From a virus (Duplodnaviria > Caudoviricetes): a DNA stretch of 63,174 nt. The notes beneath the pieces are model-generated. The model worked only from the letters and a program-made list of their open reading frames with translations, was not told the origin of the DNA and made no database searches. The translations under genes and the position numbers were made by a program. The stretch lies in IMG/VR virus record IMGVR_UViG_3300018405_000018, positions 1-63,174 of that record. The stretch is one strand, 5' to 3'. This document shows positions 11,155 through 32,750 of this stretch, one piece after another. The stretch's first letter is position 1. Each line of letters starts with the position of its first letter.

Positions 11155-14100
11155 TTACACTACTGTCCAGCCACCACTGAGGTAAATCTTCAGCGCAGAT
11201 GCTGTCGTATCGTACCATAGTTGGCCGATTGCTGGCGAAGTTGGAGCAGAGCCAGCAACATTAGCAATTGTGCCGCCAGGAGCACCAGCAGAACCAGTGA
11301 AGCCTGTTGAGCCAACCGCTGCGTCAACCCACTGTGAGCTGTCGCCATCGTTGAACCAAATCTTCAGACGACCGTTTGTGGTGTCAAACCACAGATCACC
11401 ATCAGCAGGCGACACAGGAGCAGTTGCACCTGTGAACGTTGACGCGTCAGCACCAGCAGAACCGGTGAAGCCAGCACTACCCGTGAAGCCAGCTCCTTGT
11501 GAACCGGTGAAACCGATCAAGCCTTGCGAGCCTGTGTAGCCTTGAACACCCTGGATACCTTGCAGACCTTGAACGCCCTGAGCACCCTGCGAACCAGTGT
11601 AGCCTTGGATGCCTTGTGGTCCCTGAGGGCCCTGAACACCTTGTTCACCTTGTGAACCTGTGAAGCCAGTTGGGCCAGCCACGGTAGAAGCAGAACCGGT
11701 AAAACCGATAGGACCCTGCGGGCCAGTTGCACCTTGAGGACCAGTGATACCAGTAGCACCTGATAGGTCGTTGACGTACGAGTACGATGTACCGTCCCAC
11801 AGATACAGACGGCTGTTTTCCGGATCGTTGACATTTGCTGTCTCAATGATAGCAAACTGACCTGCTGTGATGCCAGTAGGTGCTGTATCAGCGGTTAGAG
11901 CGGCAACAGAAGCGTACACTTTTGCAATCGTGAAGCCCATACCGGTGTCACCTTTGGAACCGGTAAAGCCAATCTCACCTTGTACACCCCGAACGCCTTG
12001 TGAACCTGTGAAGCCAGTAGCACCAACAGAACCTGTGAAGCCAGTAGCACCAACAGAACCTGTGAAGCCAACATCACCCTGAACGCCCTGAACGCCTTGT
12101 GAACCTGTGAAGCCAGTAGCACCAACAGAACCTGTGAAGCCAGTAGCACCTTGCGGGCCAGCGGCACCAGTGGAACCTGTTAGACCGATATCACCCCGAG
12201 AGCCTGTGTAGCCGAGTACACCCTGTGAACCAACATCGCCCTTAGAGCCTGTGTAGCCGATTGGGCCTTGAATCCCTTGTTCACCTTGAACGCCTTGAGG
12301 ACCGATTGGACCTCGAATCCCTTGTTCACCTTGTGAACCTGTGAAGCCAATAGAACCGGTGAAACCTGTTGGACCAGCAACTGTAGAAGCAGAACCTGTA
12401 AAGCCTGTTGGGCCTTGCGGACCTGTCAGACCAGCAGTACCTGACAGATCTGTTACGTATGAGTAAACAGAACCGTTCCACAGATATAACTTAGCATTGT
12501 CAGCGTCGTTGACGTTACCAGTTTCAATGATAGCAAACTGACCAGCAGAGATGCCAGTAGGTGTCGTATCAGCGGTTAGAGCGGCAACAGAAGCGTATGT
12601 CTTTGCGATTGTGAAGCCCATACCGGTGTCACCCTTGGAACCAGTAAAGCCTGTCGCACCTGCTACGCCAGTCGCACCTTGAGAGCCAGTGAAGCCGGTT
12701 GTGCCTTGTGAACCAGCCGGTCCAGCAGATCCTGTGAAACCTTGTTCGCCCTGAGAGCCTGTGAAACCGGTTGTGCCTGCAGCACCGGTTGCGCCTGTGT
12801 TGCCCTTAGAGCCTGTGTATCCGATAGGACCTTGAACGCCCTGGATACCCTGTACACCTTGAACACCCTGTACACCTTGAACGCCTTGTGAACCCGTGAA
12901 ACCGATAGAACCAGTGAAACCTGTTGGACCAGCAACAGTAGAAGCAGAACCAGTGAAACCAGCAGAACCAGTGAAACCTTGCAGACCTTGCTCACCAACG
13001 TCTCCCCTGGAGCCAGTGAAACCAGTTGTACCTTGTGGTCCTTGCAGGCCTTGAGAGCCTGTGAAACCAGTTGCGCCTTGCGGACCAGCGACGGTAGAAG
13101 CAGAACCTGTAAAGCCTGTATCACCCTTGGAGCCAGTATAACCAATCGCACCTTGTGGACCAGCAACGGTAGAAGCAGAACCAGCGTAACCGATCGGACC
13201 TCGCGGGCCAGTTAAGCCTGTTGTACCAGACAAATCTGTTACATATGTGTAGGCAGTGCCTGACCACAGATACAACTTAGCGTTGTCTGCGTCATTGACG
13301 TTGCCTGTTTCAATAACAGCAAACTGACCAGGAACGATTCCTGTCGGTGCTGTATCAGCGGTTAGAGCGGCAACAGAAGCGTACACTTTTGCAATCGTGA
13401 AGCCCATCCCTGTTTCGCCTTTGGAGCCAGTGAAGCCGATTGAACCAGTAAAACCAACAGAGCCTGTCAGACCAGTCGGTCCTTGAATACCTTGCTCGCC
13501 TTGTGAACCTGTGTATCCACGAGAGCCTGTAAAACCTTGCGCGCCTTCCGCACCGTTTGTACCGTTTGTACCAGCAGAGCCAGTGAAACCGGTTGCACCT
13601 TGAACGCCCTGTGAACCAGTGAAGCCGATTGGGCCTTGGGTTCCTTGAGGTCCTTGAATACCTTGTTCACCTTGAATGCCTTGAGCACCCTGCGGGCCCT
13701 GAATACCTTGAGAGCCAGTGAAACCGGTTGCACCTTGAGCACCCTGTGAGCCTGTGAAGCCAGCACCGGCTGGACCTATGGAACCTGTGAAACCAGTCTC
13801 ACCTTGGATGCCTTGAACACCCTGCGGGCCTTGAACACCCTGCGGGCCTTGTGAACCGGTGAAACCGATTGAACCAGTGAAGCCTGTTGGACCAGCAACA
13901 GTAGAAGCAGAACCAGTGAAACCAGTTGCACCCTGCGGGCCAGTGATGCCCTGTGTACCCGACAAATCTGTCACATACGAGTATGATGTGCCGTTCCACA
14001 GATATAACTTAGCGTTGTCTGCGTTTTGTGGATCACCTGTTTCAATAACAGCGAACTGGCCTGCAACAATCCCTGTAGGTGTCAGATCTGCTTCCAGAGC

Positions 14101-14463
14101 AGCAACAGATACGTACGACTTCGCGATGCTGAAGCCCATCCCTGTATCACCTTTGGAACCGGTGAAACCACGCTCGCCTTGCGCTCCGTTAGTGCCAGCT
14201 GAGCCTGTAAAGCCCTGAACGCCCTGAATACCTTGTGTACCCTGCGGGCCCTGTGGGCCTTGAACACCCTGTGGGCCTTGTGAACCGGTGAAACCAGCTA
14301 CACCCTGAATACCTTGCAGGCCCTGTGAACCGGTGAAACCGATTGAACCCTGATAACCTACTGTTGCGCCTGCCCAAGATGTGCCGTCCCATGTATAGAC
14401 TTTAGTGCCGATAGAGTAGATGTCACCAATCTGCGGACTAGCTGGAAAATTTAAAGCAGCCAT
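11155..14463 (-). CDS. Collagen-like fibre protein A (G[FY]TGS-rich, four globular interruptions)
   Basis: Long Gly-X-Y runs with ~48 G[FY]TGS by manual count and four copies of a ~60-aa IAK.YASVAALTAD module. N-terminal NFP.SP..GD.Y...W module and two C-terminal GDLWFD/GQLWYD modules. Confidence 0.85.
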   Translation of the reverse strand: MAALNFPASPQIGDIYSIGTKVYTWDGTSWAGATVGYQGSIGFTGSQGLQGIQGVAGFTGSQGPQGVQGPQGPQGTQGIQGVQGFTGSAGTNGAQGERGFTGSKGDTGMGFSIAKSYVSVAALEADLTPTGIVAGQFAVIETGDPQNADNAKLYLWNGTSYSYVTDLSGTQGITGPQGATGFTGSASTVAGPTGFTGSIGFTGSQGPQGVQGPQGVQGIQGETGFTGSIGPAGAGFTGSQGAQGATGFTGSQGIQGPQGAQGIQGEQGIQGPQGTQGPIGFTGSQGVQGATGFTGSAGTNGTNGAEGAQGFTGSRGYTGSQGEQGIQGPTGLTGSVGFTGSIGFTGSKGETGMGFTIAKVYASVAALTADTAPTGIVPGQFAVIETGNVNDADNAKLYLWSGTAYTYVTDLSGTTGLTGPRGPIGYAGSASTVAGPQGAIGYTGSKGDTGFTGSASTVAGPQGATGFTGSQGLQGPQGTTGFTGSRGDVGEQGLQGFTGSAGFTGSASTVAGPTGFTGSIGFTGSQGVQGVQGVQGVQGIQGVQGPIGYTGSKGNTGATGAAGTTGFTGSQGEQGFTGSAGPAGSQGTTGFTGSQGATGVAGATGFTGSKGDTGMGFTIAKTYASVAALTADTTPTGISAGQFAIIETGNVNDADNAKLYLWNGSVYSYVTDLSGTAGLTGPQGPTGFTGSASTVAGPTGFTGSIGFTGSQGEQGIRGPIGPQGVQGEQGIQGPIGYTGSKGDVGSQGVLGYTGSRGDIGLTGSTGAAGPQGATGFTGSVGATGFTGSQGVQGVQGDVGFTGSVGATGFTGSVGATGFTGSQGVRGVQGEIGFTGSKGDTGMGFTIAKVYASVAALTADTAPTGITAGQFAIIETANVNDPENSRLYLWDGTSYSYVNDLSGATGITGPQGATGPQGPIGFTGSASTVAGPTGFTGSQGEQGVQGPQGPQGIQGYTGSQGAQGVQGLQGIQGVQGYTGSQGLIGFTGSQGAGFTGSAGFTGSAGADASTFTGATAPVSPADGDLWFDTTNGRLKIWFNDGDSSQWVDAAVGSTGFTGSAGAPGGTIANVAGSAPTSPAIGQLWYDTTASALKIYLSGGWTVV

Positions 14464-14555: not shown

Positions 14556-16037
14556 TTAACCATTTAAGGTAGCAGCAAACACAAAATCAACGTTGTTCAA
14601 TGAAGTATCAGCAACAGACGGTCCTACCAGCGTTAGAAGATCGCCTTGTGCGACTACGATCTCTGTTGAGGCTGAAAAAGTTCCAGTCGTGCTGCCAGCA
14701 CCAAACGTTACAGTACCTAGCTGAACATTGTGTCTCCGGAATGAAAATACACGTTGTGCAGTAGGACCTGCATCCGCACGGGCTAACGAGCCTGCAAAGT
14801 TAGCCGGAATTGTGAACGAGCGTGGTGACAGAAACCGTAAAATCTGCTGGTTAGTTGTTGTAAGACCACCAATCACGCTAGCAAACACGTCGTAAGGCAC
14901 ACCTTGAATTGATCCTGCTGAGCCTGTGTAGCCGATCGAACCTGTGTAGCCAGTTAGACCAATTGTACCAATCGCTGCGTCTACCCATTGTGCACTGTCG
15001 CCGTCAACGTAGTAAATCTTCAGTTGGCCGTCAACCGATGACCACCACTGATCGCCGGGTGCTGGATTAGCAGGAGGAGCAACGTCAATAAACGTTACAC
15101 CACGTGACCCCGTAAAGCCGAGTTCACCTCGCGAGCCAGTAAAACCCACGCCTTGAGAGCCAGTGAAACCAACAGAACCTGTGAAACCTGTCGGGCCAGG
15201 AACTTCAGATGCAGACCCAGTGAAACCTATGGATCCAGTGAAACCTATGGATCCAGTGAAACCCACAGATCCAGTGAAACCCTCAACACCTTGAGATCCT
15301 GTAAAGCCCCGCGATCCTGTAAAGCCTGTTGGACCAGCAACCGTCGACGCAGAACCGGTGAAGCCGATATCACCGCGGGAGCCTGTGAACCCAGCGCCAG
15401 CAGAGCCAGTGAAACCGATTGAGCCTGTAAAACCTAGATTCCCTCGTGAACCAGTGAAACCGCGAGAACCGGCAAAACCTATTGCACCCTGCGAACCTGT
15501 AAAACCTATAACACCAGCAGAGCCTGTGAAGCCGACACTACCCGTGAAACCTACAGAACCAGTAAATCCTGACCCTCCACCACCGCCTGTTGCACTGATA
15601 GTTATCGTTTGTGGATCTGCTAGGTTGTCTGTTGTAATTGTTACGTTGTTACCTGCAACTAATCTCAACGTATCGAGTCCTACTGCAGTCAATGTTCCCT
15701 GCCCACCAACCTCAATAAACTTAAACGTTGAATTCATGCCAACCTTGACAGCACCGCCGCCGAGATCGGTTATGTCAAACCCTGAAGCTGTATCAAAGCG
15801 CAACGATGTTGTAGTAATGTCACCCGGAAGCACAGTCATCCCGTTGATCAAGCCGACAGTTAAAGCAGCTGACGAACCAGTAAACCCGATAACACCACGA
15901 GATCCAGTGTATCCAACAGGACCTTGGACGGTTCCAGTTGTTAGCGCCCAACCCTTGCCGTTGTATATCCACGATCTCCCACCAAGAGAGTAAACATCAC
16001 CTACAGATGGCGATGAGGGAAAATCAATAAAAGACAT
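14556..16037 (-). CDS. Collagen-like fibre protein B with C-terminal beta-sandwich (C1q/BclA-CTD-like) domain
   Basis: Start moved to ATG 16037 (MSFIDFPSSP, parallel to MAALNFPASP). ~23 G[FY]TGS. The ~110-aa all-beta C-terminal fold is inferred. Confidence 0.8.
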   Translation of the reverse strand: MSFIDFPSSPSVGDVYSLGGRSWIYNGKGWALTTGTVQGPVGYTGSRGVIGFTGSSAALTVGLINGMTVLPGDITTTSLRFDTASGFDITDLGGGAVKVGMNSTFKFIEVGGQGTLTAVGLDTLRLVAGNNVTITTDNLADPQTITISATGGGGGSGFTGSVGFTGSVGFTGSAGVIGFTGSQGAIGFAGSRGFTGSRGNLGFTGSIGFTGSAGAGFTGSRGDIGFTGSASTVAGPTGFTGSRGFTGSQGVEGFTGSVGFTGSIGFTGSIGFTGSASEVPGPTGFTGSVGFTGSQGVGFTGSRGELGFTGSRGVTFIDVAPPANPAPGDQWWSSVDGQLKIYYVDGDSAQWVDAAIGTIGLTGYTGSIGYTGSAGSIQGVPYDVFASVIGGLTTTNQQILRFLSPRSFTIPANFAGSLARADAGPTAQRVFSFRRHNVQLGTVTFGAGSTTGTFSASTEIVVAQGDLLTLVGPSVADTSLNNVDFVFAATLNG

Positions 16038-16318: not shown

Positions 16319-16687
16319 TTATCCCCATGAGTAAGTTGTTTGTGTTATTGGCAGAGCAGCAATGTTTATTACAGGTCTGTACAATGTCATGAAGTATGCC
16401 CCTTCGGTTGGTATTGGATTAGAAGCCCAAACACCTGGGACATCAGACCCTTCCAAACCTGAAGGATTATACACTGTTCCTGTAAACATTGGAACAGTTG
16501 CCCATTCACCAGGAACATTTATGTTTTGTTCGCTGTATCCACCGCCTGTTGTATTGAATGGCAGTATTGCTGACGGACCAAACAGCACTTCTGGGCGCGT
16601 GCCTATGACATAGTAGGATGTTATATCAGGCAGCGCTGCACCAGACAGCATTTCTGCTGATGCAGGTAGAATGGTCCAGTCAGCCAT
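16319..16687 (-). CDS. Hypothetical fibre-associated protein
   Basis: 122 aa, abuts the stop of the upstream gene, Pro/Gly/Trp-rich. Confidence 0.6.
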   Translation of the reverse strand: MADWTILPASAEMLSGAALPDITSYYVIGTRPEVLFGPSAILPFNTTGGGYSEQNINVPGEWATVPMFTGTVYNPSGLEGSDVPGVWASNPIPTEGAYFMTLYRPVINIAALPITQTTYSWG

Positions 16688-16689
16688 TA

Positions 16690-18732
16690 TTATGCTCTAA
16701 ACAGAATGTGAGCAGTAACGTTGCCTGTGTTGTTTGCAACGGGCGCTTGGTTAAACACACGAGCAAACTGAGCTGTTGTTGTACCAGTATACAATGCTAC
16801 ACCGTCCGTTGTTACAGCTTGGTGAGCGCTGAGGTTGAACCCGTTTGTAACAGCGAATGGTTGCCCGTAAGAAGCTAGCGTTCCTGGCGTAGCTCTGTTA
16901 AATAGCCCAGTAATCCACACGTTTGCGGCGGCGGAACCACACATCAGTGACCCTTTAAAAGGAACAATCTTGGTGCCAATACCACTACCGGCTCCGGCTA
17001 CGGTTCCGGCTCCGGTTGGCCCCAGCAATGATAGGAAAAAAGGTCCTGTTACGGTTGCTAGTGTTGTTGCTGTCAGTACACTCCAGCTTAACAAATTGTC
17101 TGAAGCGTTGAAGCGCATCACAAACAGTTGGTTATCCCACACCGCAATTCCTGACCCTCCGAATCCTCCTCTGTGTGCATGAACAGTCACATGCGCACCT
17201 TCACCTGTGTTTCCCTGAACGCGCCACACGCTGTGGTTAATAGCAAGGGAGGGGGTGTTACCTATACCGTTGTGCATGTACACAAATCCTTTATAGTCAA
17301 CTGTCATGTCTGTGAACCCGGGAACAGCCAATGGGGATGCGCCTGCTCCGCTTGTGAACGTTCTTTCAGAAGTAAACGTGGACAGGTTGATGATCTCCAT
17401 TCGAGGGGCTGTTGCAACAATTTCTCTGTATGATGCGTATAGGTAGTCGTCGTCAATTGCCAGCGCCCGGGTTCCTGTAGGCACAGCCAGCGCTGTAACC
17501 GTCATATCCGTCCAGTTCAGACGAGCAACACCCGTTGGTGTTGAAAAATACAGATTAACACCGCCGTCATAGACAACGTCCAACACATCTCCGCTAATTC
17601 CAGTTACAGCAGACCACGACAGCGTATCAAGATCCAACCTGAACACACCGCTGCTTGTTGCTGCATACACGAACCGACCGTTGATTATAACAATATTGCG
17701 AATTGCATGACCACCGCCAGAGTTGTATGATACTGCCTGTATTCTGTTTGGACCGCTGATAGCAGCGTCTAAAGGACCCCCAGTGATTGGCATAATATAG
17801 TGAACAGCGCTTGTGCCGTTAGAACTGAAGAACCCGTTACCGTCTACAGGCAGCTGTGTCGTATCCAAAGCGGCACCGGTCGGTGGGATTACGTGCAGAC
17901 CATAAATTCTACCAGTGTTGTATGCTGATGTAGCACCAGCAAGTTTCAGTGAGCTGACAATCTTCTTGCCGCTATCCCACACATATTCGTGACCGCTACC
18001 AAAGTTACCCAACATACCATGGTGGTTATTTGGGAACTGTATGGTAGAACCATAAATGATTTGTGTGCTGTTTGGTGGGTACATACCAAACGACGTGTTA
18101 ATCACAAACTGTTGGCAAGCAGCCCAACCTGTGTGTCCGTTGCGGGTACGCGGAACCCAGAAAGAGTGTGGGCGAGCGGTTGTTACAGAAGTTGTGTTAC
18201 CATAAAACTCACCAATAGTTAACGCGCTCGTCCAACCGAAGCAAGGAACTGTTTTGTCCAGAATGTCTTCAGGTGCTTCGCGTTCAAATTCAAACACACC
18301 CTGCCAAGGTCCGAGTTCCGAACGAACGGCAGTAGCAAATGCAGCGTATCGTGCTGTTGCAAACACATAGATTACGTTGTTGCTGTACTGGAGACTCAGA
18401 GGGAATGCACCTTGGTTCATAAACGTTTCGTTTGTGGGAACGTTAGTTGATGTATTCCAGTGTTCACAAGCATTGACGTACCATAGCCCTGCAGGTGTAT
18501 CATACCGCAGGATCATGTATTTTGTTGTTGGATTAGGTCCGTCATTGTTTGGTGCTGCGTACACTTTGGTAACGTGTGCGCCTCTCACGCCAGACGAGAC
18601 TGTATCAATCAAAGACCACCCCAATGAGGTTAGTGCTGTATTGACAGCATCAATAATGTTTGTTGCGCTTTGTTCGTTTGAAATCACAATTTGACGGCTT
18701 GCTGTGCCCGTCACGTTAATGTTTACGCTCAT
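16690..18732 (-). CDS. Virion protein with probable beta-propeller (candidate receptor-binding protein)
   Basis: Repeated blade-like units (NIVIINGRFVYAATSSGVFRLDL; DVVYDGGVNLYFSTPTGVARLNW; ALAIDDDYLYASY; DMTVDYKGFVYMH); has its own late promoter. Confidence 0.65.
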   Translation of the reverse strand: MSVNINVTGTASRQIVISNEQSATNIIDAVNTALTSLGWSLIDTVSSGVRGAHVTKVYAAPNNDGPNPTTKYMILRYDTPAGLWYVNACEHWNTSTNVPTNETFMNQGAFPLSLQYSNNVIYVFATARYAAFATAVRSELGPWQGVFEFEREAPEDILDKTVPCFGWTSALTIGEFYGNTTSVTTARPHSFWVPRTRNGHTGWAACQQFVINTSFGMYPPNSTQIIYGSTIQFPNNHHGMLGNFGSGHEYVWDSGKKIVSSLKLAGATSAYNTGRIYGLHVIPPTGAALDTTQLPVDGNGFFSSNGTSAVHYIMPITGGPLDAAISGPNRIQAVSYNSGGGHAIRNIVIINGRFVYAATSSGVFRLDLDTLSWSAVTGISGDVLDVVYDGGVNLYFSTPTGVARLNWTDMTVTALAVPTGTRALAIDDDYLYASYREIVATAPRMEIINLSTFTSERTFTSGAGASPLAVPGFTDMTVDYKGFVYMHNGIGNTPSLAINHSVWRVQGNTGEGAHVTVHAHRGGFGGSGIAVWDNQLFVMRFNASDNLLSWSVLTATTLATVTGPFFLSLLGPTGAGTVAGAGSGIGTKIVPFKGSLMCGSAAANVWITGLFNRATPGTLASYGQPFAVTNGFNLSAHQAVTTDGVALYTGTTTAQFARVFNQAPVANNTGNVTAHILFRA

Positions 18733-21643: not shown

Positions 21644-21678
21644 GTTTTATCGCCCAGTAGAGATTATAGTGTATTCCA

Positions 21679-21685
21679 TATTTAT
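21679..21685 (-). promoter_or_regulatory. T4-type late promoter
   Basis: cATAAATA upstream of 21643. Confidence 0.7.
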
Positions 21686-21709
21686 GACTAACTGCTTGAT
21701 ATACATTTG

Positions 21710-21738
21710 TTGTCTTGGCAGAAAGTTTGTGGTACAAT
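21710..21738 (+). promoter_or_regulatory. Host sigma70-type promoter for the glycosyltransferase gene
   Basis: TTGTCT-17 nt-TACAAT with an extended -10 TG; AAGGAG SD precedes ATG 21767. Confidence 0.65.
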
Positions 21739-24700: not shown

Positions 24701-25141
24701 AACCTCGGCGTATTGTCTGATGTTGATGGCAAAGAACTGACATTCTACCAGAATACCACTCACCCTGGTGGTAACTCATACTACAAAGAGAACTCGGAAG
24801 TCAATCCTGTTGCTGATACGTATTTTAATGAAAAGCATGCTCGCAAGGTCAAAGCACGGACGCTGGATGCTGTTGTTGCTGAGAAGAAATGGCCGTTGCC
24901 TGATCTAATCAAGATGGATGTCCAAGGTGCTGAAATGGACGTGCTAAAAGGCGCCACAAACACGTTACAACAATGCGAACATCTGATAATGGAGCTCCAG
25001 AATGTTGAGTACAACAAAGGCGCTCCACTGAAAGATACTGTGATCGACTATCTGAAGACGATTGGTTTTGAGCCAGTTGGCGGAGGATTATTCTGTGCAA
25101 ACGGCGTAGACGGAGACTATCACTTCCGTAGAGTGAAATAA
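21767..25141 (+). CDS. Four-domain fusion: GT-B (GT4-like) + GT2 + second GT-A glycosyltransferase + FkbM-family methyltransferase
   Basis: GT-B: GLGGSESAV...LAALGFDVTVF and ETFGISSLE (EX7E). GT2: VVSPVYNAEKYVEKCIRSV..Q.Y, VVDDRSTD, IDGDD. Second GT-A: ILIAIPT, VDSDM, GCGFGCVLV, SEDTYFC. FkbM: IYDIGS, TLD, DLIKMDVQGAEMDVLKG. Start moved to 21767 on SD evidence. Confidence 0.9.
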   Translation: MTKVALIDVIGLTYDGTTLSKRGLGGSESAVILMSKELAALGFDVTVFNNCIDREAQEGVYDGVKYIDINRLRQPYDYQFDVVISSRTVFPFVREQDQPHIQYDCRHFRKLAEAAKLKIVWLHDTFCQGDHILEHMLVTGAIDEIFTLSDFHTTYVGTCDHGRKRMMEVTKRKIFMTRNGAMLYPGEVDIKAKDRNLFVYNASVTKGMIPLVNTVWPIVKRQIPDAKLKVIGGYYRFRENAAPDEQEKTWRQMVADPKYADLGIEFTGVIKQSEIAEILKQASFMIYPPAFPETFGISSLESLLYNTPLITSRFGALEETAIDQASYFTDYSATPNGLYPWIDENAQCVRIAELAIHAYHNPYLHQQKMYYCNIVKGIHGWDSVALQWKQHLYNKLGLYLSADEYRKVSYVNARVREVFGRRFSNPDDIYYPRNAQQRIVVVSPVYNAEKYVEKCIRSVASQDYDNWVMYVVDDRSTDTTFATAKKAAQIYGRDRVHVIRNEENKGAVYNHVSTILEHCKPDDVVMLIDGDDALVADNQIFHKYNNLYDGTTDFTYGSCWSMVDSIPLVAQPYPEHIKQARAYRQHKFNWNMPYTHLRTFKASLMLDNVDLSMFQDSNRKWYKAGGDGAVFYAMIERARPEAVKAIQDIVYLYNDINPLNDYKINGGEQTRAANEILNKKQGIAPSQSALKTQLTTTKPIMNKTILIAIPTNKYIEPDTFKSIYDLEIPEGYTTTFQYFFGYQVDQIRNLIAHWAERFDYLFAVDSDMSFPPDTLKKLLAHNKDVVSGLYIQRKPGQHILEIYRNGRNVPYQDIKGLGLVEVDGCGFGCVLVNSDVIRKIGYPQFVYKSALDHKDTFSEDTYFCMKAKQHGFRIWADTTIQCKHHGSSVFEVDNTIEQTPADRLRELGRIMLLPKPHVDHLFYMASCGIKPKVIYDIGSCVLHWTSVAKQVWPDAEFCLCEAMPEVEPIYNENGIVNYNLGVLSDVDGKELTFYQNTTHPGGNSYYKENSEVNPVADTYFNEKHARKVKARTLDAVVAEKKWPLPDLIKMDVQGAEMDVLKGATNTLQQCEHLIMELQNVEYNKGAPLKDTVIDYLKTIGFEPVGGGLFCANGVDGDYHFRRVK

Positions 25142-25188: not shown

Positions 25189-27372
25189 TTACAGTTGGAT
25201 TGGCATACCAATTTGGATTGCCAGAGATGTTGCAGAGAGGGCAATGCCAACTGGAGCAACGAACTGACCTTCGGTTGTCGGCACTGTTGTTGTAACAGCG
25301 CCAGCAACTGTCGGAGACAGGAAGTAGCGAGCACCTGCTGTCAGACCAGTCAGACCAGTCAGAGCACCTGCTGTAGCAACCTTGCCGGTCACGCCAACTG
25401 ATGTAACAAAGCCGATTACCTTCACAGCACCAGCCGCGTTAGCTTGTGCTCTAGCAACACCACCTGTGCCTGTTGCGTACACAGCATCACCAACAGCCAG
25501 ACCAGTTGTGTCAGCTGTGATTGTCGATGCAGCAGTGTCGATAGCAACGGTACCAGCAGCTGTCAGACGACCATCAGCACCAACGGTGAATGTTGGGATT
25601 GCTGTTGCGGAACCGTATGAACCTGCTGTAACTGTTGTGTTAGCGATAGAAACAACACCTGCTGTAGCTGTCAGACCTGTACCGATCTGTACAACACCTT
25701 TGGATGTTGCTGTTGCGTCGTCGACAGTGATTGTCAGTGTGTTGTTGCCGCCAACGGTGGTGCGAACACCTTGCGCGTTGTCGCCCAGGAAAGCAAACGT
25801 TTCACCAAGAGCCAACTGGTCCGTGGTTGTACCATCACCCAGAGTAACGCTGGTGCTTGCCAACATTGCGTTGGTGATAGCACCAGTACCGATGAACAGG
25901 CCATCAGCGTCTGTAGACAGACCACCAGAAGCTTTCAGTTTCAGAGCAAGAGTAGATGTTTCTGAAACTTGGTCAGGGGTGAAGTGCAGGCCACCAGTTG
26001 CAGCCAGTTCCACGTCCAGACGGTTACCTGTCTTAGACAGACCCAGACCAGCTGTAATCTGACCAGTACCTGTGAACTGAACCCAAGCTGTACCAGAGAA
26101 TACGTAACCGGTTTCTGTCGAGCTGTCGAACAGGGCGAAGCCATCAGTAGGCGTTACACCAGCACCCCAGCTCGAACCGTCGGAAGTGTAGATCCGGTTG
26201 TCTGTTGTGTTGACAAAACGTGTACCAGCTGCAGGAACTATGACAGGAAGAACAGCACCGATACCGGCCACTGGTTCTTGCCAGCTCAGGCCACCAGCCA
26301 GCGAGTCAACATAACCCTTAGTAGCAGCGTGCAGAGCAGTTGTAGGAGCAGCGTTCAATGTCAGGAAGCCTGTCATTGTATCGCCAGTTTTGCTTACCTT
26401 ACCGTCAATGTTTATCTGCAAATCTCTGTCAGCGGCTGCACGAGTAGATGCTTCAGCTGTGATGTTACCTTGCAGAGTTGTGTCGGCCTGACCGCGCGCG
26501 GTTGCTTCATTGCTGATAGCAGATGCGTTTGCGGCTACTGCTGCAGCCAACAGAACGTCAGCGTTGTTCAGAGATGTAGCAGCACTGATGTATGCGCTTC
26601 CAACATTTGCTACGTATGCGCCAGTATCAGACAGACCAGCACCAGCTTGTGTTGCGTCCAACTCACCTTGCAGAGCACCGACAGCGTTTGTACGAGCGGT
26701 TACTTCGTTGTTGATGGATGTTTGCAGAGCACCGTCAGCAGTCGTGCGAGCTGTTTCTTCAGCTTTCAGAGCTGTGTCGAGAGTTGTCAGGGCAGAACGG
26801 ATTGTCAGAGTGCCTGCTGACAGACCAGCCAAATAGTTTGAACCTGTGAATGCTGTTAGTGCACCTTCTGTTGTTAGACCAACAGAAGCTTCGATTGCGT
26901 CGATTTGCGACTGCAGATCTGTGCTACCAGTGGCGGCGGCGGCGGCAACGGCGTTGATAGCGCCAACAATAGATGTAGCACCTGCAGCAGAGTTAGTGAA
27001 TGTAACACCTGTCAGAGTGCCGTCAAGAGCTGTACCAATAGACAGCTGTGTAGCGTCCAACTCACCCTGCAGAGCACCGACAGCGCTTGTACGAGCGGTT
27101 GCTTCAGCGTTGATGGCTGTTTGCAGTGCTGTGTCAGCGCTTGCGCGGGTGGAAGCTTCTGAAGCTAGGTCAGCATCGAGTTCGTTGATAGCAGCAACGA
27201 GGCTTGTCTTAGCTGTTGTTGTCAGCAGCGTCAGGTCACCAGTACGTGACGTAACGAACGGTTGGGTAGCGGCTAAATCACCATTAACCAGACCAAATAC
27301 GGTATCTCCGCTTTGCAGCTGTTGCAGTTCCCCGGTTAACGGGTTTAATACGAGAACTTTTCTAGTAGCCAT
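25189..27372 (-). CDS. Coiled-coil/beta fibre protein (whisker- or head-fibre-like)
   Basis: N-terminal half has heptad repeats ([16 protein letters not shown] twice). Also KTGDTMTG.L...HAATKGYVD and [16 protein letters not shown] fibre motifs, and a C-terminal [13 protein letters not shown]...RYFLS domain. Confidence 0.75.
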
Positions 27373-27449
27373 TGATTTTCTCCTTGAAATTTAGAAGGCT
27401 TGTGTTAACATTTTTTTGCTGGTGATTGGGCCCAATCCAGCAATGGACT

Positions 27450-27456
27450 TATTTAT
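27450..27456 (-). promoter_or_regulatory. T4-type late promoter followed by a 5' leader hairpin (27416-27443)
   Basis: cATAAATA; inverted repeat TTGCTGG..GATTGGGCCCAATC..CCAGCAA. Confidence 0.7.
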
Positions 27457-27492
27457 GGTCAATCGTAAGTTTTTCTCAAATTCCGCAATATC

Positions 27493-28164
27493 TTACAGCT
27501 GAATTGGGGGTTCTACGTTGACATCAATCATTGTTGGTGACAACGCTTTGCCAACTTTAACAACGAACAGATTATCGCCAACGGGCGGTGTTGACGTGAT
27601 TCCGCCAGGGAAGTCTGAACGCAAGAAATAATCTCGTCCAGCAACCAGACCGCCTGTAGCGCCTGTCAAAATGTCCCATTCAGGAGTAATCTTTTCAACA
27701 ACGCCCTTCGTGGTGATTTCAACAACCTCACCTGGGTTAGCAACAGTGTTTGTTACTAAACCAACAACGGCTGACTTTTCGTGATCGTTTGCTTGTGCCT
27801 TTTTACATTCTGCTCCGTTAGCTAGCGTGATATAAACAGCCATGCCTTTGAGGATGGCTGATGTTTCACCGTTCAGTTTAGTGAATGTTTGAACTGCTGT
27901 GCCACCGCTGCCAACTGGCGCCCACTGAACCCAGTCAGCGTTTGTAATGCCTGCTTTAAGTGTGAAATATTGGTCAGCAGCAATGACATAGACCAACATC
28001 CCTAGTTTGCGGCGGTCGGCAGTAATAGCATCACGGTCGGCCAACGTAGCAACGGACCTATAGCCACCACGGTTGTATTGCTCGTCTGTTACCGCATATG
28101 TGTCCGTTGAGTCAGTTGGGGCAATAAACCCTGCTACCCGTACTGATCCTGGTATCGCTGCCAT
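27493..28164 (-). CDS. Fibre-associated structural protein
   Basis: GGYRSVATLADRDAI..RRKLGMLVYV motif. The C-terminal AQAN..VVGLV...YFL domain ends in PIQL, as in 25189..27372. Confidence 0.7.
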   Translation of the reverse strand: MAAIPGSVRVAGFIAPTDSTDTYAVTDEQYNRGGYRSVATLADRDAITADRRKLGMLVYVIAADQYFTLKAGITNADWVQWAPVGSGGTAVQTFTKLNGETSAILKGMAVYITLANGAECKKAQANDHEKSAVVGLVTNTVANPGEVVEITTKGVVEKITPEWDILTGATGGLVAGRDYFLRSDFPGGITSTPPVGDNLFVVKVGKALSPTMIDVNVEPPIQL

Positions 28165-28183
28165 TATTGTTTTCTCCTGATTA

Positions 28184-29377
28184 TTAGCTTACAGCGATCG
28201 TAATCGCGCCGCCGAGAACGTTTGTCGTTCTGTGAACACGATAATCTTGGACAACACCAAACGCGTTCGTGACTGAGACAATGACAGGCGGTTCGAAAGG
28301 AACGTCTAGGTTTGTTGATGTATCTTTAAATGTTGTTGCGGTTCCAAACACAGTCGGGTAAGCAATCCACTTATACCCACCAGCGTTGAATGAATAGTTG
28401 CCTGCGAGCCCAGAAACAAGTCCGTTAACTCGCAACGCTTCTATTTGGTTTTCCGTCAATGTAGTATTTACACTTTCACCAAAAAATCTCCGCCATTGCC
28501 AAGTCACTGTAAAGTCGCGTGTGAATACTGTTGTCTGTGTGTTTGTTGCCCGAATCCGCCAAACGTGCGTTGTTGCTGTCGTCTTTGTCGCGTCAGCAAA
28601 GGAAAGCACTTCTGTTCCGTCGTTAGCCAAACCGACTGCTAGCGACGTTGTGCCACCAGTGATGTTCTGGATCTCGACGGTGTTTGCGGTGATGTTGGAT
28701 GCGTTGGTTGCTGTCCATGTAAACGTTCTGTTTGCGCCCGTAACGGTTGCGCCAACTTCTAGCGTTGTTGATTGTCCAGAGATCGAGAAAGCGCTGAATG
28801 TGGGCGCTTGATAAGGATACAGCAAACTCTGCAACACAACTTCCACAGGCACGCTGTTAAATGTTGTGCCAGCAGGGATGCCGCCCAGTGCTGTCGGCGT
28901 TGGGGTTGTTGAGTTGAGCACCTGTGGCGGACTACCGCCAGAAATGTTGTCAACGATCTTAACGAAGTTGTAGTTCTGAACGTATTCTGTGTATTTGTCA
29001 TTAACACCTTGGAAATCTTTGGATACAACAGGAAGCAGCCCAAGATTAGTTGACGGTCTAGCGACAGTACACAATGCACCTATGACAGAACCAATATCCG
29101 GTGGGCCGAAAATCAGATCATTGTTGTCTATGAATGTGGCACGAACCTGCAGGTTCGTGCCTCCGGGCGATACAATTTCATTGATTGTATAGAAGGAGAA
29201 TGACCCAGTTTCATGCGGAGATGTGTCTACTGCAATTACATCTCCCACGGTAACATCAAGACCTGTGTAAGCACCATCAGCGTCAAAGAATTCAAGGTCG
29301 CATATCCACTCGCGCATTTCAGCGTCGTTTGGTACAACACTTGTTAAAGTGACTCTAGCTTGAAAAGATGTTTTCAT
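28184..29377 (-). CDS. Structural protein with Ig-like beta domains
   Basis: Thr-rich beta-strand pattern (LLYPYQAPTFSAFSISG..TLEVG); in an operon with fibre genes. Confidence 0.65.
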   Translation of the reverse strand: MKTSFQARVTLTSVVPNDAEMREWICDLEFFDADGAYTGLDVTVGDVIAVDTSPHETGSFSFYTINEIVSPGGTNLQVRATFIDNNDLIFGPPDIGSVIGALCTVARPSTNLGLLPVVSKDFQGVNDKYTEYVQNYNFVKIVDNISGGSPPQVLNSTTPTPTALGGIPAGTTFNSVPVEVVLQSLLYPYQAPTFSAFSISGQSTTLEVGATVTGANRTFTWTATNASNITANTVEIQNITGGTTSLAVGLANDGTEVLSFADATKTTATTHVWRIRATNTQTTVFTRDFTVTWQWRRFFGESVNTTLTENQIEALRVNGLVSGLAGNYSFNAGGYKWIAYPTVFGTATTFKDTSTNLDVPFEPPVIVSVTNAFGVVQDYRVHRTTNVLGGAITIAVS

Positions 29378-29387: not shown

Positions 29388-32300
29388 TTACATCAACGAA
29401 TAACGTGTAATCCACGGCGATGCTGCAGTAAAGCTACCTGATTGGCCCATAGTTACCACACCTCCTGTGTTCGTTACAGTGGTGCCTGTAATAGCTTGAA
29501 CGCCGCCGGCACCATTATATCTGGTGATTACAGGTACCATCATTGTTGTCAGGCTTGCGTCTCCGTTTGGATCGGTGTATCGAACGAAGAAAGCGGTGCC
29601 TGACGGAATGAAAGAGGCTGGTGTGTGTATTGTTATTGTCTGTAGTTTAAACGTGGCTGGAATATTATCAAACCTGACTGTATCTCCGAACACACCCGCT
29701 TGATCAAGACGAACGGTAATCGCGTCGATGTCTGTTTGTGATCCGTAACCAACAAGATGGATGTTTGCAGTTTGATTCCCTGCAGCGTTCTGTATCGTCA
29801 TTTTACGTAGCACGACTGAAGCTCCGCCTGATCCGCCACCACCAGGAACGTTAACTGTAACAGCCCCGCCGCTATTTGTTGCAGTAACACCCGCACCCGT
29901 GAAGTTGATTGACGTAGCGCCTGTCGTCAACGAAGTGCCTTCGTCCAGAACAGCCAGAGCGCTTCCGCCGCCTCCACCAGGAATGTTGACAATCACACCA
30001 TCTGTTGACGATGTTGCTGTAACGCCAGCACCTGTGAAGTTTATGAACGTTGGAGCGGTGTGAACAACAGTTCCTTCGTCTTGAACGGCAAAGTTTGTTG
30101 TTCCAGACGAGCCGGTGAAGCCTTGAATACCCTGCGATCCAGTGAAGCCAGTCGCACCAGCAGGACCTGCAGAACCTGCAGAACCTGTAAAACCAGTTGG
30201 GCCAGCAGGTCCTGCAACCGTAGAGGTGGAGCCCGTGAAACCAGCACTGCCTGTGAAACCTACACCAGCACTGCCTGTGAAACCTTGTGAGCCATTGAAA
30301 CCTTGAATACCCTGTTGACCAGCGCTACCTGTAAAGCCGGCACCAGCACTACCTGTGAAACCAACTGAACCAGTGAAACCGTTCGTGCCTGCACTACCAG
30401 TAAAGCCGGCTGCACCTGCGCTACCAGTGAAGCCTGCACCAGCAGAACCAGTGAAACCAACTGAGCCGGCTGGTCCTGCAACGCCTGCACTACCAGTGAA
30501 ACCAGTGGCGCCAGCGGAGCCTGCAGGACCTGCGCTACCAGTGAAGCCTGTGGCGCCAGCAGAACCAGTAAAGCCTTGAATGCCTTGTTGACCTGCCGAA
30601 CCCGTGAAGCCAGCGCCGGCACTGCCTGTGAAACCAACTGAACCGGCAGGACCAGCTGCTCCTGCAGAACCTGTAAAGCCGGTTGCACCGGTGGAACCTG
30701 TAAAGCCGGTTGCACCAGTCGTTCCAGCTGCTCCTGCAGAACCAGTGAAGCCCGTAGCACCAGCACTACCTGTAAAGCCAGCACCAGCACTACCCGTAAA
30801 GCCAGTAGGTCCAGCAACTGTTGATGCAGAACCAGTGAAACCTGTTGCACCTTGAGGTCCTTGTGGACCAGTCACACCTTGTGTTCCAGAAAGGTCGGTT
30901 ACATATGAGTAAGCGGTGCCATTCCACAGATACAGTTTAGCATTATCTACATCGTTGACGTTGCCTGTTTCAATAATCGCAAACTGGCCTGATGCAATGC
31001 CAGTAGGCGCTGTGTCTGCAGTTAATGCAGCGACAGAAGCGTATACTTTTGCAATCGTGAATCCAATACCAGTGTCGCCTTTGGAACCTGTGAAACCGAT
31101 TGCACCTTGTGAGCCCGTAAAACCTACAGAACCTGCCGAGCCTGTGAAGCCTGTGCCTGCCGAGCCTGTGAAGCCTTGAATACCTGCAGTTCCTGCAGAA
31201 CCAGTGAAACCAGCACTGCCGGTGAAACCTGCTGTGCCTGATGGGCCTGCTGGTCCAGTGGACCCAGTAAAGCCTATTGCACCAGAAATACCTTGTGAAC
31301 CTGTGAAACCTGCATCACCACGCGAACCAGTGAAGCCTGCACCAGCAGAACCAGTGAAGCCTTGCGCACCAGGAGCGCCGTTTGTTCCAGCGCTTCCTGT
31401 GAATCCTGTGTCTCCACGAGAGCCTGTGAACCCAGCGCCAGCGGACCCAGTGAAACCGATTGAACCTGTGAATCCTGTTGCGCCTTGAGCGCCTGCCGAG
31501 CCTGTGAAACCAAATCCTGACGGTCCTTGCGAGCCAGTAAAACCACGCTCACCGGACAGACCTTGTGCACCATCTGCTCCAGCAGAACCGGTGAAGCCTT
31601 GGGATCCTGTGTAGCCTTGAGAGCCCGGACCAGTCACAACAGAAGCAATCTGTGCGTCAACGTATGCTTTATTAACAACTGATGTTGGCAATAATGGTGC
31701 ATCAACAATATCAATCTTCAATCCAGCAGGAACAAAAATGTCACCTGTCGTAACACCTGCCAGTTCAGTAATCCCACCACCTGTTCCTGGAGCACCACCG
31801 AGCATTGTTGTTGATGCTCGCATCATAATGGCGTGACGATCGATCACTGTTGCGACGGGTACTGGCGGAATCGCTGGTGTTAATGTTAAGGCACCGTATT
31901 CATCAACGTATAAAGGAGCGTTGATTTCTGCACCAGCAGCAAGCCAGTCCCAAGCACCATTGTAGATAACACCATCCAACGCAACGTTAATGAAATCGCC
32001 CGCTGCAGCATCAAACTCAATGATACCGTACGTCACCTGGGTAATGTTATGCGGGCTTGCAGCGATAACTTTGTTGTAGTCGGAGAACTGAACAATCGTG
32101 TGAGACGGCATTGATTCTTCTGCTTCTGCACGAAGTTGTACCGATCCGAGCTTAACTTGTGTGCTGTTAGCAATCCCTGTAACAGCATAGTCTTCTGTTG
32201 TGAAGTATGTGCCGTCTTTCTTCTTTAGAACGCCACCAAAGTTGTCATAGATCAGTGCACCCGCGTGAGTTGGACGGATGATACCAACTTGTGTGCCAGT

Positions 32301-32750
32301 AAACACGCCAACGTTGTTGCTCATACTGACAAACACGCCACCCTGCGTCAGTTGCGCTGCGAACACGCGAATCACACGCTGCCATCTGTTAGCAGCCGCA
32401 ACATACACTTTCATCTGGCCAGACGATGTGTCAAACCAATGTTGGTCATTTGCTGCGTTTGCTGGTGGGGTTGGGCCTTCAACAGGCTCTAACAACGTGT
32501 GTCCGAACGAACGAGCACCAGTGACAAGGTGCATATCCCAGTACAGCCAGTAGTTTGTACCAGAAACAAAAGGACCAGCCCACGCATTTGCTACAGTTTG
32601 TTTTTCAGAAAGCAAATAATCAGACGATCCGTCAGCAAATGCAACCAATACGGTGTCGTTAGGCGGGACTTGCAAAGATACTGCTGATCCAGAACGAGAT
32701 AAAAAGTTCGCTGGTGCACGGACCAAGCCTTGTCTAAAGTCGATTAACAT
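29388..32750 (-). CDS. Collagen-like fibre protein D
   Basis: N-terminal ~310 aa paralogous to 32807..36811; ~41 G[FY]TGS; one YASVAALTAD module; two DEGT...INFTGAGVTAT repeats; distinct C-terminal domain. Confidence 0.85.
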   Translation of the reverse strand: MLIDFRQGLVRAPANFLSRSGSAVSLQVPPNDTVLVAFADGSSDYLLSEKQTVANAWAGPFVSGTNYWLYWDMHLVTGARSFGHTLLEPVEGPTPPANAANDQHWFDTSSGQMKVYVAAANRWQRVIRVFAAQLTQGGVFVSMSNNVGVFTGTQVGIIRPTHAGALIYDNFGGVLKKKDGTYFTTEDYAVTGIANSTQVKLGSVQLRAEAEESMPSHTIVQFSDYNKVIAASPHNITQVTYGIIEFDAAAGDFINVALDGVIYNGAWDWLAAGAEINAPLYVDEYGALTLTPAIPPVPVATVIDRHAIMMRASTTMLGGAPGTGGGITELAGVTTGDIFVPAGLKIDIVDAPLLPTSVVNKAYVDAQIASVVTGPGSQGYTGSQGFTGSAGADGAQGLSGERGFTGSQGPSGFGFTGSAGAQGATGFTGSIGFTGSAGAGFTGSRGDTGFTGSAGTNGAPGAQGFTGSAGAGFTGSRGDAGFTGSQGISGAIGFTGSTGPAGPSGTAGFTGSAGFTGSAGTAGIQGFTGSAGTGFTGSAGSVGFTGSQGAIGFTGSKGDTGIGFTIAKVYASVAALTADTAPTGIASGQFAIIETGNVNDVDNAKLYLWNGTAYSYVTDLSGTQGVTGPQGPQGATGFTGSASTVAGPTGFTGSAGAGFTGSAGATGFTGSAGAAGTTGATGFTGSTGATGFTGSAGAAGPAGSVGFTGSAGAGFTGSAGQQGIQGFTGSAGATGFTGSAGPAGSAGATGFTGSAGVAGPAGSVGFTGSAGAGFTGSAGAAGFTGSAGTNGFTGSVGFTGSAGAGFTGSAGQQGIQGFNGSQGFTGSAGVGFTGSAGFTGSTSTVAGPAGPTGFTGSAGSAGPAGATGFTGSQGIQGFTGSSGTTNFAVQDEGTVVHTAPTFINFTGAGVTATSSTDGVIVNIPGGGGGSALAVLDEGTSLTTGATSINFTGAGVTATNSGGAVTVNVPGGGGSGGASVVLRKMTIQNAAGNQTANIHLVGYGSQTDIDAITVRLDQAGVFGDTVRFDNIPATFKLQTITIHTPASFIPSGTAFFVRYTDPNGDASLTTMMVPVITRYNGAGGVQAITGTTVTNTGGVVTMGQSGSFTAASPWITRYSLM

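Follow-up and report, generated by a model that had tools for sequence, protein, structure and literature searches.

The stretch of DNA analyzed here, referred to below as the window, comprises positions 1–63,174 of the IMG/VR virus record IMGVR_UViG_3300018405_000018. The region described in detail, positions 11,155–32,750, holds four genes for collagen-like fiber proteins (fibers A–D) and a gene that encodes a fusion of glycosyltransferase (GT) and methyltransferase domains. The four collagen-like genes, which an earlier note on this DNA had picked out, are all located on the minus strand and all match the Pfam family Collagen (PF01391), with E-values of 4.5e-98, 1.1e-18, 1.1e-55, and 2.2e-53 for fibers A, B, C, and D, respectively. 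Inside this minus-strand fiber block, no plus-strand gene other than the fusion gene has a family match. The features are arranged as follows.

Fiber A, 11155..14463, minus strand: 1102 amino acids, 48 G[FY]TGS motifs, Gly-X-Y runs of about 726 residues in total.
Fiber B, 14556..16037, minus strand: about 493 amino acids from the ATG at 16037, 23 motifs.
Fiber C, 18800..21643, minus strand: 947 amino acids, 44 motifs, one knob (a non-collagen insert); divergent from the GT gene.
Intergenic region between fiber C and the GT gene, 21644..21766, unstranded: 123 bp, divergent, with AAGGAG and sigma-70-like hexamers on both strands.
GT/methyltransferase fusion, 21767..25141, plus strand: 1124 amino acids, four domains.
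Domain 1 of the fusion, 21767..23026, plus strand: GT-B fold, GT4 family.
Domain 2 of the fusion, 23081..23806, plus strand: GT-A fold, GT2 family.
Domain 3 of the fusion, 23873..24436, plus strand: alpha/beta, GT-A-like by model, with a weak match to Anp1 and a match to phrog_1574.
Domain 4 of the fusion, 24509..25138, plus strand: FkbM-family S-adenosylmethionine-dependent methyltransferase.
Fiber D, 29388..32750, minus strand: 1120 amino acids, 41 motifs, one knob.

The collagen-like regions of the four proteins share one dominant motif, G[FY]TGS, which the earlier note had put at about 150–160 copies and which occurs 156 times by exact count (48 in fiber A, 23 in B, 44 in C, and 41 in D). 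The motif is absent from the 12 other window open reading frames (ORFs) that were counted, the GT gene among them. The four fibers contain 592 Gly-X-Y triplets, 143 of which have Phe or Tyr at position X. Thr occupies position Y in 137 of these 143 aromatic triplets, and Gly-Ser follows in all 137, compared with an average of 41.8 and at most 58 when the triplets were shuffled 1000 times. The aromatic-T-G-S sequence is near-obligate, and the true unit is therefore the hexad G-[F/Y]-T-G-S-x, in which position x varies (A, Q, R, I, V, and K). The 156 motif copies comprise 105 distinct 15-mers and use both serine codon families (TCN in 137 and AGY in 19), a diversity that rules out a recent DNA tandem repeat as the origin of the motif and therefore indicates selection on the peptide. 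In the relatives, 188 collagen-like ORFs in 133 loci that were picked by motif or by GT and thus form a biased sample, Thr is found in 5187 of 6999 aromatic triplets and Ser follows in 4886 of these 5187, with the next residue varying freely.

The composition of the triplets departs from that of canonical collagens, with their Pro-rich position X and (hydroxy)proline at position Y. In the phage fibers, Pro is found at X in 54 of the 592 triplets (9%) and falls outside the 12 most frequent residues at Y, where Thr is the commonest (210 of 592, 35%), followed by Gln (129) and Ala (81), with Lys present in 11. Given this scarcity of proline in the collagen region, hydroxyproline cannot stabilize the helix.

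The Gly-X-Y runs span 192–726 residues per protein across the four fibers, and their periodicity suggests a triple helix. The collagen helix rises 0.286 nm per residue, which gives shaft lengths of roughly 208, 55, 126, and 119 nm for fibers A, B, C, and D; open frames in the relatives reach up to 1611 Gly-X-Y residues. The listed ORF of fiber B begins at a TTG at 16052, and the start is probably the ATG at 16037, because the N terminus then parallels that of fiber A. Fibers A and B both open with a short motif, …FP.SP..GD.YS…W…G..W, which reappears near their C-terminal ends as a GD.W…L.I(W/Y) hairpin; fiber A carries two such C-terminal GDxW-type hairpin motifs. Interspersed in the shafts are knobs, non-collagen inserts of about 60 residues, of which there are four in fiber A, one in C, and one in D, always positioned between GSKG(D/E)TG and G..G.(T/I)GP.G. 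The knob is found in 17 ORFs of the relatives and is 79% conserved per alignment column; a predicted complex of three knob copies scored 0.01 against a mark of 0.42, which speaks neither way on trimerization.

The fibers combine conserved N-terminal motifs with hypervariable tips. The non-collagen N-terminal part of fiber C is about 300 amino acids long, and its segment 168–298 recurs in 31 ORFs of the relatives. The tip of fiber C is essentially an orphan, with only four partial matches in a collection of 5.8 billion proteins, and the C-terminal tip of fiber B, about 114 amino acids, is without a Pfam match. Fiber D has a 375-amino acid non-collagen N-terminal domain and a repeated beta-rich region at its C terminus. 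Among 2043 ORFs of the relatives, no homologues were found for the tips of B and C or the N terminus of D, and a Pfam search at E ≤ 1 returned nothing above the cut-off for the tips of B, C, and D, the N terminus of D, the knob, or the N-terminal parts of B and C. A sequence resembling a T4 late promoter, TATAAATA, is located at 32783–32790 on the minus strand, 33 nucleotides upstream of the fiber D start. Two such sites are present in the window, compared with 0.54 expected, and two were reached in 8 of 100 shuffles, such that its reading as a promoter is only a hint.

The picture of a coat of collagen hairs drawn in the earlier note is not supported. The genes sit in a tail-fiber block, the best PHROG matches of the collagen-like proteins are mostly labelled tail fiber, and motif collagens of one relative (record G004) bear the tail-fiber end domains Mtd_N and Peptidase_S74. 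The collagen-like proteins thus look like tail fibers, not coat hairs.

The fusion gene most likely starts at the ATG at 21767 and not at the TTG at 21707, because an AAGGAG ribosome-binding site precedes this ATG and homologues align from there. In a 19-kb scan, 17 sigma-70-like sites were found against a shuffle mean of 19.0; the count is below that mean, and therefore no claim on expression timing is made. In a 1144-amino acid frame, Pfam places GT4/GT1 at 45–345, GT2 at 459–594, and FkbM at 964–1122, and NCBIfam concurs. An AlphaFold2 model built from a 30-sequence alignment (mean predicted local distance difference test score (pLDDT) 84.0, predicted template modeling score (pTM) 0.62) contains four alpha/beta regions, which are read as GT-B at 1 to about 420, GT-A at 439 to about 680, GT-A at 703 to about 890, and methyltransferase at about 915–1124, with a low-confidence linker at 682–701. 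The description of the enzyme as three GTs joined to a methyltransferase therefore stands, with the third GT domain, which is GT-A-like, contributed by the model. Domain 3 passes no Pfam cut-off, and its look-alikes, nearly all of them viral, are mostly standalone phage proteins of about 200 amino acids.

Catalytic motifs are retained in all three GT domains. The ExxxxxxxE motif of domain 1 (E293–E301) and the DGDD motif of domain 2 (529–532) are invariant in 30 sequences, and in the conserved VDSD motif of domain 3 (764–767), D765 and D767 are invariant in the same number. These invariant motifs indicate that the enzyme is under selection. Across 29 homologues, the fusion is 59–73% identical. 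A hydropathy scan found no 19-residue window above a Kyte-Doolittle value of 1.6, and the enzyme is predicted to be soluble and without a membrane helix. The best NCBIfam GT2 matches are TuaG, EpsE, and WcaA, and for the GT2 domain there is a weak match to a GtrB-like PHROG (6.8e-8); Pfam at E ≤ 0.01 returned no T4 alpha- or beta-glucosyltransferase family for the fusion.

Structural comparisons place the tandem GT-A domains near heparosan synthase 2, K4 chondroitin polymerase, human LH3, and COLGALT1, and the GT-B domain near sucrose-phosphate synthase, MshA, BshA, PimA, GtfA, and the GT of phage HY126. In BFVD, the full-length fold is matched by proteins of uncultured Caudovirales at 46% identity, and the methyltransferase domain resembles an FkbM protein of Moumouvirus (38% identity, template modeling (TM) score 0.93).

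The pairing of motif and enzyme in other phages was followed from both sides. Searching from the enzyme gave 32 viral loci at 52–65% identity, 28 of which have at least 400 bp upstream. Directly upstream of the GT in 21 of the 28 lies a minus-strand motif collagen, counted as an ORF with at least two motifs; the seven exceptions are L012, L015, L033, L034, L035, L038, and L041. At about 16 kb from the enzyme, the whole records of L041 and L035 contain 72 and 32 motif-pattern matches, and the records of L012, L040, and L034, all of which end early upstream of the enzyme, contain 1, 0, and 0. For the search from the motif, viral contigs were scanned for GFTGSxGFTGS, which gave at least 119 stretches in at least 80 loci, L019 being already in the enzyme set. 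Among the matches listed, there were 77 distinct new motif records, and 73 of these were searched for the enzyme. A fusion orthologue (49–65% identity, E < 1e-100) was found in 40 of the 73 (25 of 47 plus 15 of 26), with weak single-domain matches only in four more. Most motif-bearing records are fragments less than 40% complete, and the majority of those without the fusion are either short fragments or contigs that end close to the collagen gene (G021, G041, and G047). The co-occurrence of GT and collagen across phage genomes, which the earlier note had named as a check, is thus borne out.

In addition to the window, the pairing is present in a second deep lineage of the T4 superfamily. G004 is a complete genome of 173.6 kb, with a major capsid protein (MCP) 70% identical to that of Stenotrophomonas phage DLP6 and 64% identical to that of Sinorhizobium phage phiM12; between the window and G004, the MCPs are 38–42% identical and the GTs 51%. 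On its plus strand, G004 encodes a three-domain GT (867 amino acids) and a separate FkbM protein (242 amino acids), and these genes are flanked by minus-strand motif collagens of 320 amino acids with Mtd_N and 415 amino acids with Peptidase_S74. The same layout is observed in the window's own clade in G001 (291.7 kb, 82% complete). Five tandem minus-strand ORFs of 229–415 amino acids also lie between two motif collagens in G001, adjoining the GT (211064–214375 and 209844–211088, locus L185); they share N- and C-terminal motifs and end in …NFEA.R.RYG[IL].

The closest cultured relatives of both lineages are devoid of the pair. Five complete cultured genomes (XacN1, Xoo-sp13, RsoM2USA, DLP6, and phiM12) contain no motif-pattern match, and no GT homologue from the genera of these five is found among the 91 records matched in a tblastn search of 50,697 phage records; that search returned single-domain matches only, at most 26% coverage. 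In an MCP tree of 18 rows, the window is sister to XacN1 plus Xoo-sp13 with support 97/99. Positives were coded from any contig and negatives from complete genomes only; the fragment rows G029, G031, and G067 were left uncoded, and the tree omits G046 and G057, whose MCPs are split. Since the window is sister to phages that have neither motif nor GT, both traits have changed several times, with at least five state changes for the enzyme and at least four for the motif. The motif changed in the same direction as the enzyme in two to three independent pairs and in the opposite direction in none; the association is consistent between lineages but statistically underpowered.

The enzyme family is widespread in metagenomes, with 1702 proteins at E ≤ 0.001 among 8000 candidates scored, and occurs in forms of about 1100, 1350, 1580, and 1800 amino acids, the longer ones with inserts, on contigs of up to 393 kb. 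It is encoded as one fused gene, as two genes divided at the low-confidence linker (about residue 700), or as four genes (G010); these forms were recorded in G010, G011, G013, G005, G017, G027, G034, G049, G053, G060, and G068. These forms look like active domain shuffling. A fusion variant without the methyltransferase and with an extra GT2-like insert is present at L041 1–9940 (record G074). Its neighbors, as read from translations, are an HldE-like bifunctional protein, an NAD-dependent epimerase, a 583-amino acid heptosyltransferase-like protein fused to a methyltransferase, and a GT25-like protein; a 1601-amino acid RCC1-repeat-like protein and a DNA polymerase gene also adjoin it. In G045, a gene of the NAD-dependent epimerase/dehydratase family (76474–77100, plus strand) lies 1.5 kb downstream of the fusion, and none is found in the complete G004. 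Among five relatives, an epimerase/dehydratase family gene is present in two and a nucleotidyltransferase family gene in none, counts that do not distinguish between targets.

In 185,579 species genomes, two peptide patterns of limited sensitivity found two strong enzyme loci, both with the phage GT/collagen layout. These are contigs of metagenome-assembled genomes (MAGs), L187 (Cellvibrionaceae, 201.5 kb) and L188 (Gammaproteobacteria, 12.4 kb). A bacterial origin of their enzymes was rejected on the basis of this fiber layout, and the contigs probably come from phages and were binned into bacterial MAGs, whose labels provide a weak lead to gammaproteobacterial hosts. The collagens of the cultured cyanophages S-CRM01 and S-CAM7 contain no motif, and neither phage has the fusion. 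S-CAM7 (L171, MT586120.1) carries a 1545-amino acid collagen-like gene at 11881–16518 and, 2 kb downstream, a putative prolyl 4-hydroxylase gene at 18535–19131, a pair that may represent a separate, hydroxyproline-based route to stabilizing phage collagen.

Judged from its genes, the window is a fragment of an uncultured XacN1-related jumbo myovirus of the T4 superfamily, and the fiber region is the host-contact module of that phage. CheckV gives the 63,174-base record a completeness of 18%, and the whole genome would therefore measure roughly 350 kb. T4-type structural genes fill the right half of the window (by PHROG, the large terminase TerL, sheath, a tube-like protein, a gp23-type major head protein, and portal). 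TerL and MCP are 51% and 58% identical to those of Xanthomonas phage XacN1, and the closest cultured phages are XacN1 and Xoo-sp13 of Xanthomonas, the Stenotrophomonas jumbo phages CM1 and RAS14, and Ralstonia phage RsoM2USA, at 45–51% for TerL and 51–59% for MCP. The label T4-like given earlier thus applies in the broad sense, the nearest cultured relatives being XacN1-type jumbo phages. A megablast search of the GT region against the 50,697 phage records found no close DNA relative. A 'Moraphage' lineage considered in this context was not linked to this phage, and the available excerpt of its description mentions neither collagen nor XacN1 (PMC12619734).

From about 0.5 to 36.8 kb, nearly all genes are fiber-like and on the minus strand. 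Further genes of this block are as follows.

Tail-fiber gene, 7810..11058, minus strand: 1082 amino acids, C-terminal Peptidase_S74 intramolecular chaperone, no collagen motif.
Two ORFs between fibers B and C, 16319..18732, minus strand: 122 and 680 amino acids, no family match.
Three ORFs between the GT gene and fiber D, 25189..29377, minus strand: 727, 223, and 397 amino acids.
Fiber-like or virion structural protein, 32807..36811, minus strand: 1334 amino acids, no collagen motif.

The 680-amino acid product is rich in Ser and Thr (19%). At its N terminus, the 223-amino acid ORF has matches to phrog_23630 and a 'tail protein' family, and the 727- and 397-amino acid ORFs have no family match. 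A 638-amino acid protein of the block carries a Peptidase_G2 autoproteolytic domain. Among the main ORFs at 540–38217 (the end-truncated ORF at 3–533 excluded), no further enzyme domains were found besides the self-cleaving chaperones Peptidase_S74 and Peptidase_G2 in neighboring fiber genes. Two adjoining minus-strand ORFs at 3958–4725 and 4939–5790 both end in Gp53-like_C (E about 5e-17 each) and may be alternative fiber tips. Between the fiber block and the large terminase gene is a 171-amino acid P-loop kinase-like protein (38235–38750, minus strand; AAA_33 E 5e-18, weak Zeta_toxin match). A 517-amino acid virion structural protein (47963–49516, minus strand) matches F5/8 type C (discoidin) weakly, at 25.3 bits against a cut-off of 28.2 bits, and this discoidin-like domain is a possible sugar-binding module on the particle.

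From the directly observed fiber anatomy, the conservation of the shaft motif and of the catalytic motifs, the co-occurrence, and the synteny, we infer the triple helix, a substrate, an order of steps, and the methyl cap with its role. The fibers are a plausible substrate, and the reading we favor, with a probability of roughly 0.5, is that the Thr and/or Ser residues of the motif are O-glycosylated by the fusion, that the glycan is methyl-capped, and that the proline-poor helix is thereby stabilized. The enzyme would work in the cytoplasm on the fiber chains, with one GT domain placing a sugar on Thr and/or Ser of the hexad, the remaining two GT domains extending the glycan, and the FkbM O-methyltransferase capping the terminal sugar. 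Glycosylated Thr at position Y would then stabilize the triple helix, as in the cuticle collagen of Riftia, and the glycans would give the fibers a glycan surface. Glycosylation of the fibers is preferred mainly because a conserved enzyme accompanies a conserved shaft motif while the neighboring tips turn over completely. Also fitting this reading are the predicted solubility of the enzyme, its confinement to phages, the linkage of FkbM even where it is unfused, and the Thr-rich helix.

Several observations weigh against fiber glycosylation. The case for the fibers as substrate is one of linkage only, and the triple helix rests on Gly-X-Y periodicity. The enzyme gene lies inside the fiber cassette, and swaps of the cassette would co-transfer or co-delete both without a functional tie, so that enzyme and fibers are inherited together whatever the enzyme does. 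The phylogenetic control yields three independent pairs on supported branches (five on all), with a sign test p of 0.25. Motif collagens are not, in general, common in phages that lack the GT, the pattern that the earlier note had held would count against it, but there are exceptions. G023 (115.8 kb, 64% complete) has 40 motif-pattern matches at 16.4–19.7 kb without the fusion; this record has no GT2 gene, only an unrelated 333-amino acid GT1 at 49.5 kb, about 30 kb from the motifs. G046 (61.5 kb) has 43 matches at 21.8–24.3 kb, and in G070 (197 kb, 100% complete) the pattern is matched 11 times, with about eight true GFTGS copies, both records again being without the fusion; G062 (42 kb, 80% complete) likewise lacks it and has two pattern matches. 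In G074, about 16 kb separate the collagens from the fusion, which adjoins ADP-heptose-type genes and a DNA polymerase gene, and the third motif collagen of G004 is 42 kb from the GT. The fold neighbors are generic (heparosan and chondroitin polymerases and small-molecule GT-B enzymes), and the matches to the collagen GTs LH3 and COLGALT1, at a root-mean-square deviation above 20 Å, reflect the tandem GT-A arrangement only. In print, host O-chain modification is favored for GTs in myophage fiber regions (PMC7029224, in excerpt).

This last function, the alteration of a host envelope glycan (O-antigen, capsule, or other polysaccharide) during infection, is the subject of the main rival explanation, a serious one that we regard as rather unlikely. 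Such a change could block superinfection or keep progeny from re-adsorbing to lysing cells, and the enzyme would travel with the fiber genes because both concern the same host surface. GT4, GT2, GT-A, and methyltransferase domains belong to polysaccharide-synthesis families, as do the folds and the TuaG, EpsE, WcaA, and weak GtrB-like matches noted above, and the G074 fusion lies beside HldE-like, epimerase, GT9-plus-methyltransferase, and GT25-like genes, with an epimerase/dehydratase gene downstream of the fusion in G045 as well. An enzyme matched to a receptor should covary with it, and here the enzyme is conserved (51% across lineages) next to hypervariable tips; variation of the tips without variation of the enzyme counts for the shaft, and not a host receptor glycan, as the target. 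The enzyme also has no predicted membrane segment, no flippase, priming transferase, or GtrA-type partner was recognized in the window ORFs scanned, and no membrane-embedded GtrA/GtrB/Gtr set was found by Pfam in the main window ORFs. The two peptide patterns, with their limited sensitivity, found it practically absent from bacterial genomes, and a host target would leave the tracking of one particular collagen motif unexplained. Unlikely as well is that the fusion is a passenger in the fiber cassette of one broad phage group, in which the hexad is the preferred repeat (for example, aromatics for lateral packing and Thr/Ser for hydration) and co-occurrence reflects shared descent and physical linkage. 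In favor of a passenger, the positives are confined to two clades within a single superfamily, the test on independent pairs is underpowered, G023 and G046 have dense motifs without the fusion, and the complete G070 has few motifs and no fusion. The divergent GT/collagen layout nevertheless persists at about 40% MCP identity, through fusion, two- and four-way splits, and insertions, with the FkbM gene still adjacent when unfused; the closest cultured relatives of both clades have neither trait, and the invariant catalytic motifs speak for an enzyme under selection.

A target elsewhere on the phage is less probable still. The enzyme would in this case glycosylate another virion component, such as the Ser/Thr-rich non-collagen fiber proteins of the block or the capsid and tail tube, or make a glycan, free or lipid-linked, with which the particle is decorated. 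The neighboring non-collagen ORFs have 19–23% Ser plus Thr, mycobacteriophage glycans are found on the C termini of capsid and tail-tube proteins (PMC12619734, in excerpt), and the virion protein at 47963–49516 has the weakly matching discoidin-type domain noted above. It is, however, the motif collagen that is the conserved neighbor of the enzyme across lineages, unlike the 727-, 680-, and 397-amino acid ORFs (whose relatives were not traced), and this counts against another virion target. Hypermodification of the phage DNA with a methylated oligosaccharide is very improbable. Phage GTs that decorate DNA with glycans are known, having reportedly been described by Pyle et al. in 2024, and the enzyme gene of G074 abuts a DNA polymerase gene; against this, the fusion matches no T4 alpha- or beta-glucosyltransferase family, its gene lies within a structural or fiber block in the window, in G001, in G004, and in 21 of 28 loci, and the link to the collagen motif would be unaccounted for.

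Glycosylation of the fibers can be extended to a broader picture, which we offer tentatively and consider somewhat doubtful as a whole. Widespread uncultured aquatic phages of the T4 superfamily would bear hydroxyproline-free collagen tail fibers of up to about 0.4 micrometer, stabilized and coated by methyl-capped O-glycans on G-[F/Y]-T-G-S, convergent with Riftia, and domain shuffling of the enzyme would diversify the glycan coat independently of the tips. Should the enzyme indeed act on the fibers, the system would be the first known in phages to have a dedicated enzyme for glycosylating collagen-like fibers at a defined repeat. A third viral route to collagen stabilization would then join prolyl hydroxylation (S-CAM7) and hydroxylysine glucosylation (Mimivirus L230), and the reading of GTs in myophage fiber regions, which are now taken by default as modifiers of host O-antigen or DNA, would change.

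Related systems are compared here from excerpts of the cited papers. The A064R protein of Chlorovirus PBCV-1 contains two rhamnosyltransferase domains and a 2-O-methyltransferase that act at the end of the capsid N-glycan (PMC9614988). Similar to the fusion, A064R is one viral polypeptide in which several GT domains are combined with a methyltransferase at the C terminus; it is presumed cytoplasmic and serves a virion glycan. The main differences are that the fusion has three GT domains (one GT-B and two GT-A) and an FkbM-type methyltransferase, and that A064R targets N-glycans on the capsid of an algal virus, whereas the presumed target of the fusion is an O-linked collagen motif on phage fibers. 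No homology was detected between the two: the 17 PDB sequence matches of the fusion do not include A064R, and its top 50 fold matches in PDB and in BFVD include neither A064R nor the solved domain of that protein.

The collagen-like region of Bacillus anthracis BclA is composed of GPT-type repeats. BclA is an exosporium glycoprotein in which the collagen region carries oligosaccharides that end in 2-O-methylated anthrose (PMC6222408). Both BclA and the phage fibers have a proline-poor collagen-like region with Thr at position Y, and a methyl-capped O-glycan is proposed for the phage fibers. BclA differs in its repeat, which is not G[FY]TGS, and in being a bacterial spore protein and not a phage fiber, and the enzymes are unrelated as far as tested. 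BclA also has a C1q-like head; the phage fiber tips match no Pfam family at E ≤ 1 and have too few homologues for modeling.

Mimivirus L230 hydroxylates Lys and glucosylates the resulting hydroxylysine through a GLT25D1-like domain, and collagen-like proteins such as L71 are encoded by the same virus (PMC9614988). As proposed for the phage, the virus encodes both proline-poor collagens and a glycosylating enzyme; L230 differs in that the phage has no hydroxylase, Lys is rare at position Y (11 of 592), and the candidate acceptors are Thr and Ser. In the cuticle collagen of Riftia pachyptila, galactosylated Thr adds thermal stability (PMC10141479, citing Mann 1996 and Bann 2000). There, as in the phage fibers, Thr dominates position Y in place of hydroxyproline, which provides a physical rationale for Thr glycosylation, although Riftia collagen is an animal extracellular protein and the modification of Thr in the phage would be by analogy.

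Among phages, GTs of mycobacteriophages decorate structural proteins of their own particles (Freeman et al. 2023, summarized in PMC12619734). These differ in being siphoviruses of Actinobacteria with glycans on capsid and tail-tube C termini, and the excerpt mentions no collagen substrate or GT-methyltransferase fusion. In pelagimyophages and cyanomyophages, GTs, most commonly GT8, are found in a hypervariable tail-fiber region and are read as modifiers of the host O-chain (PMC7029224). Similar to the window, these aquatic T4-superfamily phages have GT genes among their fiber genes and collagen repeats in structural proteins; their GTs are mostly single-domain, and no four-domain fusion or pairing with a motif is mentioned in the excerpt. 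For archaeal viruses, a similar adjacency-based guess has been made on tail proteins, without collagen (PMC11706807, in excerpt). The pairing of motif and enzyme was not found described in the literature searched on collagen-like proteins of phages, jumbo phages included, or on virion or tail-fiber glycosylation. The proposed system is of a known kind, virus-encoded glycosylation of the virus's own structural proteins, and its collagen side differs from BclA and from the Mimivirus L230/L71 pair in the repeat, the acceptor residue, and the enzyme families.

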